This document shows positions 1 through 6,221 of a stretch of 20,633 nt of DNA, piece after piece. The first letter of the stretch is position 1. Each line of letters begins with the position of its first letter. The position numbers were made by a program, and so were the translations under genes. The notes beneath the pieces are model-generated. The model did not search any database. It had not been told where the DNA came from and saw nothing but the letters and a program-made list of their open reading frames with translations. The stretch is from a virus. Its lineage: Duplodnaviria; Heunggongvirae; Uroviricota; Caudoviricetes. The stretch lies in the IMG/VR virus record IMGVR_UViG_2606217106_000021; one strand, given 5' to 3'.

Positions 1-171
1 TCAATAAATCCCATCATTGCGATCAACCTCATCCTTAACCATTGATGCGAGCAGTTCTTCCAGTTTCTGCGCTGATAGCTTTACCTGGTGATCTTCAGCA
101 TCTTCCCGGGCTATTGTGGTTCGCGAAGTGGCTGATTTTGCTGACATCACCACAGGGGGCAGACGGACCAT
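1..171 (-). CDS. Hypothetical small protein (about 56 aa if started at MVRLPP...; the six-frame ORF runs 1..282)
   Basis: Minus-strand ORF ending in TGA at 1-3. An internal ATG at 169-171 is preceded by GGAGG about 10 nt upstream. The longer 93-aa version overlaps the hairpin after the tfa fragment, so the short start is preferred. No recognisable motif. Confidence 0.25.
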   Translation of the reverse strand: MVRLPPVVMSAKSATSRTTIAREDAEDHQVKLSAQKLEELLASMVKDEVDRNDGIY

Positions 172-237
172 TGAACCATGGCCTCCGGAACAAATAAGGG
201 CAAAAATAACAACCACTATCGAAAGCTCACAAACTAA

Positions 238-271
238 CCGCAGCACGTTCCTGCATACGACGTGTCTGCGG
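238..271. terminator. Imperfect hairpin (ccgcagcacg ... cgtgtctgcgg) just downstream of the tfa fragment; diverged copy of the hairpin at 1288-1320
   Basis: Inverted repeat read directly from the sequence; the arms carry a one-base bulge. It lies about 15 nt past the stop of the 286..555 ORF. Confidence 0.35.
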
Positions 272-285
272 CATAATCCCAATGA

Positions 286-555
286 TTACTCCCTGACAGG
301 ATTTGCAGGCCACTCAATATCAGGTGCAGTTGATGTATCAACACGATTCAACAATACCCGATATTTATTCCATGCCTCCAGCAACGATCTTTCTTCCTCC
401 GTTGCGATTTCCAGATCTACAGCATCCTGCAGTGGCGCAATATACTCACTGAATTCCTGGATGTAGAACTGTGTGGTGACGGTCTTCCAGCCATTCGGCT
501 CCTGCTGTATCGAAGCATACCAGGCTATTTCAATATCGCTATGCTGCGGCAGCAT
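286..555 (-). pseudogene. Tail fibre assembly protein C-terminal fragment (tfa remnant, 89-aa ORF)
   Basis: The C-terminal ~55 aa ([50 protein letters not shown]) are near-identical to the C-terminus of the full Tfa at 1335..1919. The N-terminal ~35 aa are unrelated. DNA of about 236-450 repeats about 1285-1500. Confidence 0.6.
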
Positions 556-611
556 TTAACCCCTTGTAATTCATCGCCATAATTGATTTAATTCACAAAT
601 AAAACTATAAC

Positions 612-1280
612 ATGGTGAAATCAATGAAAAAAAACACAGATGATGGGGCTAAAATTTACACACCACTTACCCTAAAGCTTTATGACTGGTGGGTTTTGGG
701 AGTATCAAATCGGCTTGCATGGGGATGTCCTACAAAGGAACACCTTCTTCCACACTTTCTGGAACATGTAGGTAACAACCATCTGGATATTGGTGTTGGA
801 ACTGGGTTTTACCTTACTCACGTACCTGAGAGTAGTCTGATATCTTTAATGGATTTGAACGAAGCTAGCCTGAACGCGGCATCTACAAGGGCTGGGGAAT
901 CAAAAATTAAACATAAAATTAGCCATGATGTTTTTGAACCTTATCCCGCGGCGTTACATGGTCAATTTGATTCCATTTCCATGTTTTACCTTCTTCACTG
1001 CCTGCCTGGAAATATATCTACAAAAAGCTGTGTAATACGCAATGCGGCGCAGGCCTTAACTGACGATGGAACTCTATACGGAGCCACAATTCTTGGCGAT
1101 GGAGTTGTGCACAATAGCTTCGGTCAAAAACTGATGCGCATTTACAATCAGAAAGGCATCTTTTCAAACACAAAAGATTCCGAAGAAGGCTTAACACATA
1201 TACTCTCAGAGCATTTCGAGAATGTTAAAACCAAGGTTCAAGGTACTGTAGTAATGTTTTCCGCTTCAGGGAAAAAATAG
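612..1280 (+). CDS. Class I SAM-dependent methyltransferase (222 aa), cargo gene
   Basis: Only long ORF on the plus strand. It has the SAM-binding motif I signature LDIGVGTGFY. The gene is AT-rich relative to its neighbours, has an AT-rich upstream region (556-611) and ends 8 nt before the 11-bp hairpin at 1288-1320. An alternative start is at 624. From memory, the DLP12 prophage of E. coli K-12 has a methyltransferase pseudogene (ybcY) between tfa fragments. Confidence 0.75.
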   Translation: MVKSMKKNTDDGAKIYTPLTLKLYDWWVLGVSNRLAWGCPTKEHLLPHFLEHVGNNHLDIGVGTGFYLTHVPESSLISLMDLNEASLNAASTRAGESKIKHKISHDVFEPYPAALHGQFDSISMFYLLHCLPGNISTKSCVIRNAAQALTDDGTLYGATILGDGVVHNSFGQKLMRIYNQKGIFSNTKDSEEGLTHILSEHFENVKTKVQGTVVMFSASGKK

Positions 1281-1287
1281 CATCCAA

Positions 1288-1320
1288 CCGCAGCACGTTC
1301 TTGCTTAAGACGTGCTGCGG
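1288..1320. terminator. Perfect 11-bp stem hairpin between the convergent methyltransferase (+) and tfa (-) genes; probable bidirectional terminator
   Basis: ccgcagcacgt-tcttgcttaag-acgtgctgcgg is a perfect inverted repeat. On the minus strand a T-run (tattttttcc) follows about 8 nt after the stem. Confidence 0.5.
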
Positions 1321-1334
1321 CATAATCCCAATGA

Positions 1335-1919
1335 TTACTCCCTGACAGGGTTCGTAGGCCACTCAATATCAGGTGCAGTTGATGTATCAACACGGTTCAG
1401 CAACACCCGATACTTTTTCCAGGCTTCCAGCAATGAGGTTTCTTCCTCCGTTGCAATTTCCAGATCTGCAGCATCCTGAAGCGGCGCAATATGCTCACTG
1501 GCTACCTGCATCAGGTTGTTTTTTGTTTCTTCCGCCTCCCGGATCCGGAACAGTTTTTCTGCTTCTGCATCTTTCACCCAGGTTGTGCCGTTCCACTTCT
1601 GAAACTCCCCTTCTGGCGATAACCAGGTAACATTTTCCGGTAATAAGCCGAGTTCAGAAATAAATAACGCGTCGCCGGAAGCTACGTCATAAACCGTTTT
1701 ACCCCGATGATCTTCAACGAGATGCCACGATGCCTCATCACTGTTGAAAACAGCCACAAAGCCAGCCGGAATATCTGGCGGTGCAATATCGGTACTGTTT
1801 GCTGGCAGACCTGTATGAGGCGGAATATATGCGTCACCTTCACCAATAAATTCATTAGTTCCGGCCAGCAGATTATAAATTTTTATGGTCCGTGCTTGTT
1901 CACTCATTCTGAATGCCAT
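1335..1919 (-). CDS. tfa: Tail fibre assembly protein Tfa (194 aa)
   Basis: Near full-length identity to lambda Tfa as I recall it ([78 protein letters not shown]...), same 194-aa length. Its ATG overlaps the stf stop as TAATG at 1917-1921. Confidence 0.93.
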
Positions 1920-4900
1920 TATGCAAGCCTCACAATATAGTTAAATGCGATGTTTTTGACGGTGTTTTCCGCGTTACCCGCAGCGTTAACGGTGATGGTG
2001 TGTCCATGTGAACCAATCGCAACGGAGTGCGTATGCGCACCAATACCTACAGTATGTGCATGTGCGCCAGAACTTGCTGCAGTACCAGACAGCGAGTGGG
2101 TATGAGCACCTGCTGACTGTGTCTGAATACGTTGATAATACGATCTATAGGAAGAAGTCCCCGGGCTTACTTGATACTGTGAATTCTGGACATAAGTGAA
2201 CCCACCGCCATCATAAAATGCTAACGCAGAACCGCCGCCTCCTGGCCAACGAATACCATTACCATGAGTATGAACACCGGCAGACCCCGTAGAGCCACTC
2301 AGACTGTGCGTATGCGCCCCGGTGTTATTCGTGGATTTAGTGCCGTAATCAAACGACGATGTGGTTTTCGTCCCCAAATCCGTACTGGATGCGCTGGCGC
2401 TGTGGGTATGCGATTTAATGCCGTCCTGTTCCTGAGACAATACGGCCCGACCACTGGCAGGTTTGCCCTTAATCGTCCAGCCACGCATATCAGGGATCAC
2501 GCCTGACGGATAAGCGGCTGCAAGTTTCGGGTAGGCAGATTTGTTAAAAGTCTGCCCCTGCATCAGGGCATAACCAGACGGAACGGTATCTGATGGCCAC
2601 GGGATTGGTGCGCCAACTGGGTAGCTTTCTGGTGGAAGATTTTTCGAGGTATAAACTTCTGCCCAGTCTTCCTCAAAACCATAACCGTCTCTTGAAGAAC
2701 GGTAGAACAGACCACGATTTCTGTAATGCGCCTTCATCTGCAGGGTCCGGCAACTTCCGACTCCGGTATAGAAGTTAACCAGAATATAGCTGTCGCCAGA
2801 GCGGGTGACATTGTAAGCGCCTGATTCGGCATTCCAGGGAACGGCTCCATCCGAATCCGCATAAGCCCCCGTCGAACGTCGGGCAAATGCACCAATATTT
2901 TCCGACGTGAGGTTAATATCCGCCGAGCCATCAAACTTAACACCGTTAATTTTTGGGGCTGCCGCAAGTTTCGTCGCGGTATCGGCGTTCCCCTTCAGTG
3001 CCCCGGTGATCCCATCAGTAACAGACAACGGACCTGAAATAGTCCCTCCAGTCGTTGGCAGCGCTCCAATATCTGATGGTGTAGGTTTCTGATGTGAGCT
3101 ATACATCGTATAAACAACACCACCGGTAACGCTGGAAGGCTTACTCGCTGAATATGTTGGCGAGGTATAAATAGAAACTGACGCATTTGTAGTACAATCC
3201 CAATGGATATTTACACTCGTCGCATAATTGCCAATCTCAACGTAAATATCATATGTATCGCCGGATGTGTTGATCCAGGCGAAATTCGTTAATCCGACGG
3301 CTGTACGCTTCCACAAAGCTCCGGTAATCCCTTTGGGCTTTCCATTGCCTGCTCGTAGAACCAGTTCTGAAATGCCTGCCTGCTGTGGGGAGCCGACGTT
3401 GTAACCAGCGCCACCAATCAATGCGATGTAAACGATGGAACTCGCTTGTGGCATGGTAACCGTTGCCAGTTTGAACCACCCTGCCCCGCCAGAGAAAGAG
3501 ATCGTTACTGAATTTAAAGTGCCAATATCTTTCGGTGTTAATGTTATATCCGCAGTCAGTGCTTTCCCGTTAACTTTTCGGTTAGATGGTACCCTGCCAT
3601 TCGCATTGTCATTCGCTGCTTTAACTGCCTTCGGTGTCGCGGCAAGCGTTTCAGATGTGCTGTTGGTCGCACTGCTGAGCTGTACTATCCCCTTTTTCGT
3701 CGTACTTGCATCCTCAAGCGCCACGGCGGATGCAATATCCTCTGCCCGTTTTGCCGCTGTCTCGGCGCGCGTTGCCGCGGATTCCGCCGTACTTTTGCTC
3801 TGTGCTGCCGCCGTCGCACTGCCAGCTGCCTCTGTCGCCTTCGTGGATGCTGTCGTGGCGCTGCCCTTCGCTGCTGACGCCTGTCTGGTCGCCTCATCTT
3901 TTGAAGCTGACGCCGATGATGCCGATGACGCCGCCGAACTGGCGGACGATGCGGCAGCCGTTTTTGAGGATTCTGCGCTGGTTTCCGACGCTTTCGCGTT
4001 CGTCTCGGATGTCTTCGCTGCGGAAGCAGACCTTGCTGCTGCACTGGCCTGTTCAGTGGCTTTGCCAGCCTTCGTTGTGGCTGTTGAAGCGGATGATGCG
4101 GCGCTTTCTGCCGATTTTCCGGCGGCGGTGGCACTGGCTGAGGCCTGCCCGGCACTTGTTGACGCGGCACTGGCAGATGATGCAGCCGCTGTTTTTGAGC
4201 CTGCCGCAGCTGAGGCACTCTGTCCCGCTGCCGTTTCAGAAGACCTGGCGTTCGTCTCGGACGTCTTTGCCGCCTTCGCGGAATTTCCTGCCGCCGTTGC
4301 CGAGGAAGCTGCACTACTGGCACTTGATGATGCATTCGTTTCTGAAGATTTCGCTGCCTCTTTTGAGGCCGCCGCACCCCGTGCCGAGGTGGCAGCTTCT
4401 GACGCCTTCGTGGTCGCTGTGGATGCAGAAGTGGCTGCCGATTTTTGTGATGCTGCGGCATTCGTTTCTGACGTTTTCGCGGCACTGGCGCTGGTAGCTG
4501 CCGCGCTTTTTGATGACTCTGCAGCAGCAGCACTTTTTGCTGCTTCACGGGCCTTTGTCGATGCCGTTCCTGCGCTGGAAGACGCTGACTGAGCCGACGA
4601 CGCGGCCTGTCCGGCTGGCGTGCTGGCGGCACGTGCTGAGGCTGCAGCATCGGTTGCATGAGTTGCCGCCTCGCTGGCTGATGCACTGGCATCGCTGGCT
4701 GATTTTTTCGCGGCTGCCGTATTCTGTGCAACCGCGGAGGCGTTACGTGACACCTCTTCCACCATCTGCTCAAAGCGGCGCAGTGCCTCCGGTCGGACAT
4801 CATCCTCCGTCATGGCACCGAGAAAATCATTCAGCGTACCTGGTCTGGAACCTTCATAGACGGTAATGGTCCCGGCATGTGAAGGCGGAAAACCTTCAAC

Positions 4901-5089
4901 CAGCAGGGTGACGCTGTACTGACCATGCTCAACATCCATGCTGTAACGTCCGGCTTCATCCGGATTTTCAGAGGCCACCGTGTTCACCACCACCGTGCTG
5001 CTGGTTCGTCTGGCCTTCAGCACAATGGTGCAGTTCTGTACTGGTTTTCCTGTGCCATCTTTAAGCACGCCAGAAATTTTTACTGTCAT
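1919..5089 (-). CDS. stf: Side tail fibre protein Stf (1056 aa), unsplit
   Basis: The N-terminal ~120 aa ([22 protein letters not shown]...[14 protein letters not shown]) and the C-terminal ~250 aa (HxH repeats, ...[24 protein letters not shown]) match lambda Stf as recalled. A long Ala/Ser/Thr-rich repetitive central region accounts for the spurious antisense ORFs. The middle of the protein (about residues 480-800) does not match my recollection of lambda. Confidence 0.9.
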
Positions 5090-5240: not shown

Positions 5241-6164
5241 TCAGAAACGGTAACGGGAAGAAGCCACCACTCCTTCAGACAACGCCTGTGCATCCTTAAT
5301 GGCTCCATAGCAACGAATCCCCTCTGCTGCCGTATTCCCCAGCACCAGCGTGCCCTCCGGCAGATAACGTTTTTCGGTACCGTCCTCTGCCACATAAGAC
5401 GTTTTCGCTACCACAATGGCCAGATCGCCGTAATACCCCTTGAAGGATACCACTGCGCCCAGATCTTTCACTGCCGTTTCGAGTTGTGAATTTGAACCGC
5501 GACGGGTATCCATTTTTTCGCGGAAAAGCTTAAAGCCATTCAGCAGACGCCAGACGGTACCGTCCATAATGGCAATATTCACAAGACCACTGGCCTGATC
5601 ACAGAAAAGGTCGATATCATATGTCGGGTCGAACGTGTCACGATCCTGTTTTGACCACTCCTTACCGCTACCTTGTATGATGTTATTCTTCGTCGATCGG
5701 CCAAAATCGACTTCAATTTTCTCGAACTGGTCTCCTTCCATCGTATATTTGCCATACAGCACGGCATTCACCGCCTGCATTTCTTCCACCTGCACAATAG
5801 CGTGCTCTTCCTGTTTGAGGTTATCAGTGATGATACGCAGACGACGGTAGGCCGGGTCGTTCAGCTGAGCCGGATCTTCACCGGGAAGGCGCTCAACCGC
5901 CTGCTGGTAATTAAATTCGTGTTTCGGCTTGACGTAGCCAGGACGCAACACGCGGGTTTCACCACCACGATGGCGCAGCACTTTTCCTTCAACGATCGGG
6001 GAGACATAGGCCGCCACCGGCGTTTTTCCGGTAATTTTGTCCAGCATCACCTCTTCGGTGTGGAAATTCACCGTACGGCGGAAAAACAGCTCCAGAAATA
6101 GCGCACGGAATTTAACTTTTTGTTCGGTATAACCGAGTAACTGGCGGGTCGTAAACAATCCCAT
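5241..6164 (-). CDS. E: Major capsid protein E, C-terminally truncated (307 aa, lambda E is 341 aa)
   Basis: Matches lambda E over most of its length (YVSPIV.G.V.R.RGG, PGYVKPKHE, QVEEMQAV.AVL.GKYTM, DTRRGSNS.LETAVKDLG, GDVAIVV). It ends ...SSRYRF* where lambda continues for about 35 more residues. Confidence 0.85.
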   Translation of the reverse strand: MGLFTTRQLLGYTEQKVKFRALFLELFFRRTVNFHTEEVMLDKITGKTPVAAYVSPIVEGKVLRHRGGETRVLRPGYVKPKHEFNYQQAVERLPGEDPAQLNDPAYRRLRIITDNLKQEEHAIVQVEEMQAVNAVLYGKYTMEGDQFEKIEVDFGRSTKNNIIQGSGKEWSKQDRDTFDPTYDIDLFCDQASGLVNIAIMDGTVWRLLNGFKLFREKMDTRRGSNSQLETAVKDLGAVVSFKGYYGDLAIVVAKTSYVAEDGTEKRYLPEGTLVLGNTAAEGIRCYGAIKDAQALSEGVVASSRYRF

Positions 6165-6221
6165 AAATCAGTTCCTTTCATTCAGAAATCAGTCAGGCCA
6201 CCATGGTGGCCTGATAACGTG

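Follow-up and report, generated by a model that had tools for sequence, protein, structure and literature searches.

The ybcY methyltransferase gene as a probable moron between two diverged tfa ends in a lambda-like prophage of Escherichia coli

Background

How did a methyltransferase gene come to lie between two copies of the end of a tail fibre assembly gene (tfa), and what kind of substrate does its product act on? The question was raised by a stretch of 20,633 nucleotides (nt) of caudoviricete DNA (IMG/VR record IMGVR_UViG_2606217106_000021), referred to here as the window, in which direct repeats derived from the tfa 3' end enclose a gene for an S-adenosylmethionine (SAM)-dependent methyltransferase. 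An initial annotation, made from the sequence, took the gene for cargo whose insertion had duplicated its target. The analysis reported here favors another history: the locus appears to be the cargo-bearing end of a lambda-like prophage integrated in ompW, with the methyltransferase gene, known as ybcY, as a moron lying between two diverged tfa ends and exchanged or lost through recombination (rough probability 0.8).

Results

Direct repeats and stem-loops around the methyltransferase gene

Positions 1-2000 of the window matched the E. coli 55989 chromosome (NC_011748.1) at 100% identity; in the RefSeq annotation, a lambda-like prophage inserted in ompW has its right end here. Reading from the left, RefSeq gives the order trp operon, yciG/F/E, truncated ompW, a DUF4376 pseudogene fragment, truncated tfa, class I SAM-dependent methyltransferase, intact tfa, a tail fibre gene of 1056 amino acids (aa), lom and gpJ. 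The prophage thus abuts the truncated ompW, which adjoins yciE and the trp operon, and the locus lies between the tail-fibre genes and the attachment site.

Two direct repeats of 227 and 226 nt (236-462 and 1286-1511) were found in the same orientation by repeat search and MAFFT alignment. They were identical in 201 of 227 columns (88.5%), with a single 1-nt indel located within the hairpin, and are thus not unrelated sequences; chance cannot account for 227 nt that match at 88% within 1 kb. The initial annotation had placed the repeats correctly, if slightly short (about 215 bp, roughly 236-450 and 1285-1500), and had described each as the last ~55 codons of tfa plus a hairpin. Each copy consisted of 58 sense tfa codons and the stop codon, followed by a stem-loop. 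The right copy belonged to the intact 194-aa tfa, which showed ~92% DNA identity to lambda tfa, and the left copy to a 5'-truncated tfa. The left edges of both repeats were sharp (236 and 1286), and similarity faded beyond 462 and 1511. The sharp edge coincided with the point where similarity to lambda ends (matches from query positions 229-232) and, as read from these alignments, represents no more than a usual boundary between modules, at the foot of the tfa hairpin.

The 61-nt segment holding the left stem-loop (225-285) folded at -24.1 kcal/mol on the tfa strand (z score -3.35). The 60-nt segment holding the right one (1275-1334) folded at -28.5 kcal/mol on the minus strand (z -5.6) and at -23.0 kcal/mol on the plus strand (z -4.9). 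A terminator scan accepted the left stem-loop only, which had a U-rich tail on the minus strand. The right stem-loop begins 8 nt past the methyltransferase stop codon and may serve both convergent transcripts; because it had no canonical U-tract on either strand, it is to be taken as a putative terminator. The same type of hairpin was found 3' of tfa in lambda and in Salmonella phage SPF_0923. An Rfam match to CssrB at the hairpin was discarded as noise (32.6 bits against 76).

The two copies were 11.5% diverged. Over the 58 shared codons, 12.5 synonymous and 9.5 nonsynonymous differences were counted, giving a ratio of nonsynonymous to synonymous rates (dN/dS) of 0.18, with fewer replacements than neutrality predicts (p=0.0012; 22 differences, part of them at the decaying edge of homology). 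Given this synonymous bias, most of the divergence would therefore have arisen while both copies were in working tfa genes. Neither terminal inverted repeats flanking 463-1285 nor a transposase or integrase within 236-1511 were detected by repeat search, open reading frame (ORF) listing and Pfam, and the methyltransferase gene was the only intact gene inside the cassette. The repeats look like two diverged tfa alleles joined around a moron by recombination between phages.

Composition, start and expression signals of the methyltransferase gene

The methyltransferase ORF, of 222 aa, runs on the opposite strand to tfa between the two copies and matched Pfam families Methyltransf_12, 23, 25 and 11. 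Its guanine-plus-cytosine (GC) content was 41.1%, and that of the upstream spacer 26.8%, against 47-54% in the flanks, which bears out the earlier description of an AT-rich SAM-dependent methyltransferase with its own AT-rich upstream region. In an alignment of 28 homologues the family began at M5 of the window ORF, the ATG at 624, which is probably the true start and would give a protein of 218 aa.

Promoter-like hexamers face the gene (TTGATT at 583-588 and TATAAC at 606-611, separated by 17 nt), and a consensus scan preferred TTAACC-16-CATAAT at 556-583. A -10 element at 606-611 would start transcription past the annotated ATG at 612, and a start at 624 is therefore favored. Shimada et al. 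(2014; PMC3946193) listed a sigma-70 holoenzyme site and an H-NS site in the ybcY/tfaX spacer of K-12, at the same hexamers, from one in vitro screen in a strain where ybcY is a pseudogene. The K-12 spacer differed from that of the window by one base.

Features associated with morons were found at this gene. Its base composition deviated from that of its neighbors. It was present or absent in otherwise collinear phages, being missing from lambda, whose homology to the window ends at the hairpin base, and from four otherwise near-identical ompW prophages. Its candidate expression signals are the promoter-like hexamers, with the in vitro K-12 RpoD/H-NS site, and a stable hairpin after the stop codon that lacks a U-tract on that strand.

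Prevalence and relation to ybcY of K-12

The arrangement is not new but a known one: the cargo is the annotated ybcY of lambda-like prophages, a very common gene. In the cryptic prophage DLP12 of K-12 MG1655, tfaD-ybcY-tfaX (b0561-b0563) has the same order and orientation as the window and aligned with it from ~375 to ~1855 at ~99% DNA identity. K-12 ybcY is a pseudogene in which a 2-bp deletion in a poly-A run removes the conserved start, whereas the methyltransferase gene of the window is intact. In addition, the last ~90 bp of K-12 tfaX are a different tfa allele without the stem-loop, and tfaD is fused to other remnants, while the window tfa is intact and its prophage retains the tail genes.

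The core of the cassette (463-1285, 823 bp) was present at ≥95% identity in 3798 of 5426 complete E. coli genomes (~70%), with one to four copies in each. Its position beside the fibre genes, earlier called unusual for a DNA methyltransferase, is not unusual. The complete 2-kb arrangement was present in 1113 genomes, and the 100%-identity cluster of the methyltransferase comprised 6589 member sequences. Far from being disrupted in all relatives, the ORF was intact in most of them, and RefSeq annotated it as intact in every match among those listed. Heavily decayed prophage remnants also retained an intact gene. In E2348/69 the remnant was reduced to ompT-methyltransferase-'tfa-'int-tRNA-Arg, in an O157 strain the gene adjoins IS66, and in strain 605 it lies at potB with an IS3 element between it and a tfa remnant on the right. 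Such persistence in prophage stumps suggests, short of proof, that the host benefits from the methyltransferase.

No functional study of ybcY was found in biological papers, where its mentions are list entries; one paper reported that a ybcY mutant was without effect on Hha toxicity. A literature search on methyltransferase morons beside tail fibre assembly genes in prophages returned nothing relevant.

Breakpoints inside the repeats and cassette-less alleles

Similarity to other genomes broke off inside the repeats, at window positions 309, 331, ~375, 1320 and 1455. The breakpoint was at ~375 in K-12, at 236 and 1455 in phages 2G7b, ev243 and PhiR49_1, at 331 in the PhiR26/29/30 phages, and at 309 or 331 and also at 1320 in Kati, Turner and PhiR68_2. 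Phage 2G7b carried the cassette with a different fibre system and with ompT nearby, and phage Turner had a DNA invertase between cassette and tfa. In the Turner locus (L018, 4492-6138), about 1 kb of small ORFs without annotated function accompanied the invertase between the cassette hairpin and tfa; this region may have been left by an invertible fibre segment next to the methyltransferase gene.

Cassette-less alleles were sought with an artificial deletion product as query, and then with a real one, among 380 genomes with the same left flank. At the same ompW site, four genomes (EFF60, 190693, NMBU-W13E19 and JP538) lacked the cassette and carried a single tfa, the strain comparison thus yielding the single-tfa allele that the initial annotation had proposed to look for. 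The single repeat of these alleles was a hybrid that follows the left copy at the hairpin and the right copy further in, switching within 266-300 in EFF60 and within 307-345 in the other three. By itself this hybrid pattern does not separate loss from gain, because the single-copy tfa genes of lambda and SPF_0923, phages that never carried the cassette there, show a similar one.

The flanks told more. Three of the four cassette-less genomes had near-identical cassette-bearing counterparts, in two different tail-fibre backgrounds. EFF60 had no mismatches with the cassette-bearing 2017C-4173W12 over the left flank (235 nt) and tfa (651 nt, window 1350-2000), and 2 differences in the next kilobase of stf, the side tail fibre gene. 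NMBU-W13E19 had no mismatches with the same strain in the left flank and 1 difference in the stf 3' kilobase, and the two shared an ash/Rha insertion. The stf end of 190693 was of the 55989 type (2 differences to the window versus 313-314 to the EFF60/4173W12 type), and JP538 had a third fibre type. Four different yciE alleles were carried by the four strains. A variant at window 1700 that seemed to be shared by the four cassette-less alleles was most likely an artefact, EFF60 being identical to 4173W12 over 1350-2000 in a register-corrected ungapped comparison.

A cassette-less allele with its junction inside the repeat makes homologous recombination between tfa ends a real route of gain or loss. 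The earlier proposal that the repeats could mediate excision by homologous recombination is accordingly supported by these hybrid alleles (4 of 380), with loss as opposed to gain not proven.

Class of the methyltransferase

The encoded protein had the features of class I (Rossmann-fold) SAM-dependent methyltransferases, namely a GxGxG motif I, an acidic residue after strand 2 and a seven-stranded alpha/beta fold. In the 28-homologue alignment a DxGxGTG motif and the acidic residue D81 were invariant, as were two family-specific motifs, the N-terminal YDWWVL..SN..AW.C and LLHCLPG. Pfam matches were confined to Methyltransf_12/23/25/11/31 and MTS. The family, phrog_2132 in PHROG (function unknown), had 2296 detectable members in Enterobacterales and beyond.

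An AlphaFold2 model built on the 28-sequence alignment reached a mean predicted local distance difference test (pLDDT) score of 89.8, with disorder only in residues 1-14. The top Foldseek matches in PDB were the phosphatidylethanolamine N-methyltransferase PmtA (8ys9), juvenile hormone acid methyltransferase (JHAMT), phosphoethanolamine methyltransferases and the keto-acid C-methyltransferase SgvM. Identity to solved small-molecule and lipid class I methyltransferases (PmtA 8ys9, JHAMT 7ec0, BelI 9fce, DhpI 3ou2, RebM 3bus) was 12-21% only, and the two family-specific motifs set the window enzyme's family apart from them. Sequence searches of PDB reached only JHAMT and UbiG (E 5e-6 to 1e-3), and NCBIfam gave only sub-threshold matches to CpaM, RquA and PmtA (16-18 bits against cut-offs of 175-390). 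Membership of the PmtA equivalog was rejected (15.7 bits against a cut-off of 390), the likeness being in fold only. PADLOC returned no defence-system match, and a search of a viral structure library was uninformative.

The initial annotation named no target for the enzyme but judged its placement as that of a DNA methyltransferase, and it called for a profile or fold search. Such searches placed the enzyme in class I with small-molecule and lipid methyltransferases as its neighbors, and did not support a DNA methyltransferase. The 222-aa sequence contained no [DNS]PP[YFW] or PCQ motif, no DNA methyltransferase family (N6/N4 or C5) was among its Pfam matches, and no DNA methyltransferase occurred among the fold neighbors listed in either of the two neighbor lists. 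From the model and its neighbors, the enzyme is most likely a small-molecule or lipid methyltransferase and not a DNA methyltransferase.

The left tfa remnant and segment 463-555

The left remnant forms part of an 89-aa open frame (286-555). Its tfa-derived part, 286-462, is annotated as a pseudogene by RefSeq and corresponds to TfaX in K-12; the 93 nt from 463 to 555, which encode the N-terminal 31 residues, had no homology to intact tfa. Caudo_TAP covered residues 31-86 only, and phrog_2341 the full length. Residues 1-26 were matched by tblastn only in 22 of 306 phage records (those covering at least 80% of the ORF), which were cassette-bearing where listed, and the remaining matches listed started at residue 26 or later. 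Segment 463-555 always travelled with the cassette, and the sole lead to its origin was a weak PHROG match to phrog_3893 (residues 3-37).

Rfam family IS009 (RF02111) matched at 1378-1576 (minus strand, 225.7 bits) and at 329-532 (minus strand, 112.5 bits). The latter fell just under the gathering score of 117, so that membership by score holds for the former only; the same two places matched in K-12 tfaD and tfaX. The strong match lay wholly within the reading frame of the intact tfa. Judged by position, the IS009 matches appear to be conserved tfa coding sequence, and they give no evidence for a free-standing small RNA.

Neighboring features

The features of the locus are collected in Table 1. 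The DUF4376 pseudogene, which has a stop codon inside its frame, is flanked by the truncated tfa and the ompW stub and extends further left (5920-6189 of locus L001). After the intact and the truncated tfa, it is the third gene or remnant of the tail-fibre module in the same orientation. In some strains (loci L005 and L015) an extra ash/Rha gene pair was found between this fragment and ompW. RefSeq also annotates a 45-aa hypothetical protein (WP_001309429.1) at 1225-1362 on the minus strand. This frame overlaps the hairpin together with the 3' end of the methyltransferase gene and the region of the tfa stop codon, and is probably no real gene.

Upstream of tfa, stf contained a long Ala/Ser/Thr-rich low-complexity tract (about 3435-4800), which yields spurious long ORFs at 3435-4592 (plus strand) and 3685-4803 (minus strand). 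Near its C-terminus, stf encoded repeated GAHTHS-type His motifs (repeat family D2, 2027-2320). Prophages that were near-identical elsewhere differed in its last kilobase, of which there were at least three highly divergent alleles.

Table 1. Coordinates of features at the ybcY locus (positions in the window)
Feature	Position	Strand	Basis
DUF4376 (tail-fibre-related) pseudogene, 3' fragment	1-189	-	RefSeq 55989; PHROG phrog_7703, phrog_1141 "tail fiber protein"
Direct repeat, left copy (tfaX-like tfa 3' end and stem-loop)	236-462	.	88.5% identity to 1286-1511
Stem-loop 3' of truncated tfa	238-271	-	Folding of 225-285; terminator scan
Open frame, 89 aa (5'-truncated tfa 286-462 and cassette-linked 463-555)	286-555	-	Caudo_TAP residues 31-86; phrog_2341
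AT-rich divergent spacer with promoter-like hexamers	556-611	.	GC content and promoter scan
Class I SAM-dependent methyltransferase, YbcY family, phrog_2132	612-1280	+	Pfam, PHROG, alignment, AlphaFold2, Foldseek
Direct repeat, right copy (intact tfa 3' end and stem-loop)	1286-1511	.	88.5% identity to 236-462
Stem-loop common to convergent tfa and methyltransferase transcripts	1288-1320	.	Folding of 1275-1334
Intact tail fibre assembly gene tfa, 194 aa, lambda Tfa type	1335-1919	-	Caudo_TAP E=4.8e-44; phrog_105
Side tail fibre gene stf (1056 aa), preceding tfa in the late operon	1919-5089	-	ORF list, RefSeq

Discussion

A proposed moron carried between tfa-derived arms

The arrangement can be explained as follows. 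The YbcY-family methyltransferase gene would be an independently transcribed moron lying beyond the stem-loop that ends tfa and convergent with it, while on its far side would lie what remains of a different tfa, a 3' end of the tfaX type with a stem-loop of its own. A gene located beyond the tfa hairpin of one phage may have been joined illegitimately to DNA of another phage comprising the 3' part of tfa and what lies downstream, the illegitimate junction being either 462/463 or 555/556. The C-termini of Tfa proteins are widely conserved among lambdoid, P2-like and Mu-like phages and so can act as portable homology arms. Recombination inside these arms would move the 823-bp core between phage backgrounds, and recombination between the two copies would remove it, leaving one hybrid tfa end. 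In the lysogen, the enzyme would most likely methylate a small metabolite or a lipid and not DNA, with expression probably held low by H-NS.

The moron concept was put forward by Juhala and Hendrix, and lom and bor of lambda are lambdoid examples. Like lambdoid morons, the window gene is an extra gene in some collinear phages, outside the essential operon, with a deviant composition and with promoter-like sequences and a hairpin beside it. It differs from the moron definition in having 227-nt homologous arms that derive from a structural gene, and its putative expression signals come from the sequence and from the K-12 in vitro site. The invertible segments of the Pin, Gin and Cin systems (e14, Mu and P1) also have two tfa-derived sequences beside a tail fibre gene, and the Turner cassette lies beside a DNA invertase. 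Unlike in those systems, the copies in the window are direct and not inverted, one of them amounts to a 3' stump, a second fibre C-terminus is missing, and RefSeq annotates no invertase from stf through tfa to the prophage end.

Alternative explanations and counter-evidence

The cargo status of the methyltransferase gene assumed by the initial annotation stands, whereas the duplication of its target does not. A mobile cassette inserted downstream of or into tfa, with ~220 bp of its target copied on entry as in a target-site duplication, would fit the sharp left edges at the same position relative to both hairpins and the presence or absence of the cassette as a unit. It is nevertheless very improbable: the 11.5% difference is biased to synonymous sites (dN/dS 0.18), as would be predicted of two alleles that both functioned, and not of an in-situ copy; the unrelated 463-555 follows directly on the left copy, so that the far edge is no clean duplication boundary; and inverted repeats and mobility genes were missing from 236-1511. 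Transposition duplicates a few bases, not 227. The direction of the presence/absence polymorphism is a closer matter. The four cassette-less alleles could be ancestral empty sites, the other prophages having acquired the cassette from a donor phage through homologous recombination; exactly this architecture would follow from single crossovers inside tfa between the genomes of two phages, the breakpoints that fall inside the repeats in other phages show that such exchanges happen, and the single-copy tfa ends of lambda and SPF_0923 have the similar pattern of left-type hairpin and right-type distal states. This course deserves to be taken seriously although it is unlikely. Only 4 of 380 genomes were without the cassette, and their alleles occurred in at least three stf backgrounds, two of them with near-identical cassette-bearing counterparts and one pair sharing the ash/Rha insertion, so a gain model needs several independent gains ending in the same structure. 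Repeated loss by recombination between the copies is the more parsimonious history, and probably the true one, since the cassette-less alleles are scattered among otherwise cassette-bearing sub-lineages (4 versus 376).

The left repeat might instead be retained for a function of the remnant itself, as an 88-89-aa TfaX protein or an IS009 small RNA. Its frame is open and matched a PHROG family (phrog_2341) over its full length, an AAGGGG motif lies 4 nt upstream of its ATG, IS009 matched in both tfa 3' regions, and a sigma-70 site facing tfaX is listed for K-12 (PMC3946193). Set against these are the RefSeq pseudogene call, the splitting of the frame in phage 2G7b and its shortening to 61 aa in K-12, the sub-threshold score of the left IS009 match, and the listed -10 hexamer, which overlaps the start codon of the ORF so that the transcript would begin inside it; a functional remnant thus seems quite doubtful. 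That the enzyme methylates DNA (or RNA), protecting phage DNA from restriction or marking host nucleic acid, is hardly credible in view of the motif, profile and fold searches described above.

Several observations weigh against the preferred reading of a moron exchanged and lost between two tfa ends, or loosen parts of it. Promoter and terminator activity are deduced from consensus matches and one in vitro K-12 screen, and on the methyltransferase strand neither stem-loop had a canonical U-tract. The dN/dS value depends on the 22 differences mentioned, part of them at the decaying homology edge. At hairpin sites 255, 258 and 265 lambda and SPF_0923 share the left-type states, with most of their more distal sites being of the right type, and the possibility of empty sites leaves the direction of the polymorphism unproven. 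As for the enzyme, structural neighbors were spread evenly over many substrate classes at 10-21% identity, so that no substrate can be named, and homologues at 56-60% identity in Salmonella, Enterobacter and Yersinia were single genes whose neighborhoods share nothing, giving no clue from context.

Significance

The structure itself matters little, being a common annotated prophage cargo that reflects the usual shuffling of lambdoid modules at conserved gene ends. The gene within it is a widespread, uncharacterised "y-ome" gene of E. coli, intact in most strains and dead in K-12, which may be why it has not been studied. As a long shot, the YbcY-family enzyme could be a domesticated lysogenic-conversion factor that methylates an envelope lipid (for example phosphatidylethanolamine, like PmtA) or a small acid or metabolite, altering phage susceptibility or host fitness, with the tfa-derived arms letting it hitch-hike between the tail-fibre modules of unrelated phages. 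If true, such a role would explain the persistence of an intact gene across ~70% of E. coli genomes, stumps of prophages included. The conserved Tfa C-terminus, as a ready-made homology arm, offers a simple and testable account of how cargo may spread and be lost without a mobility enzyme.

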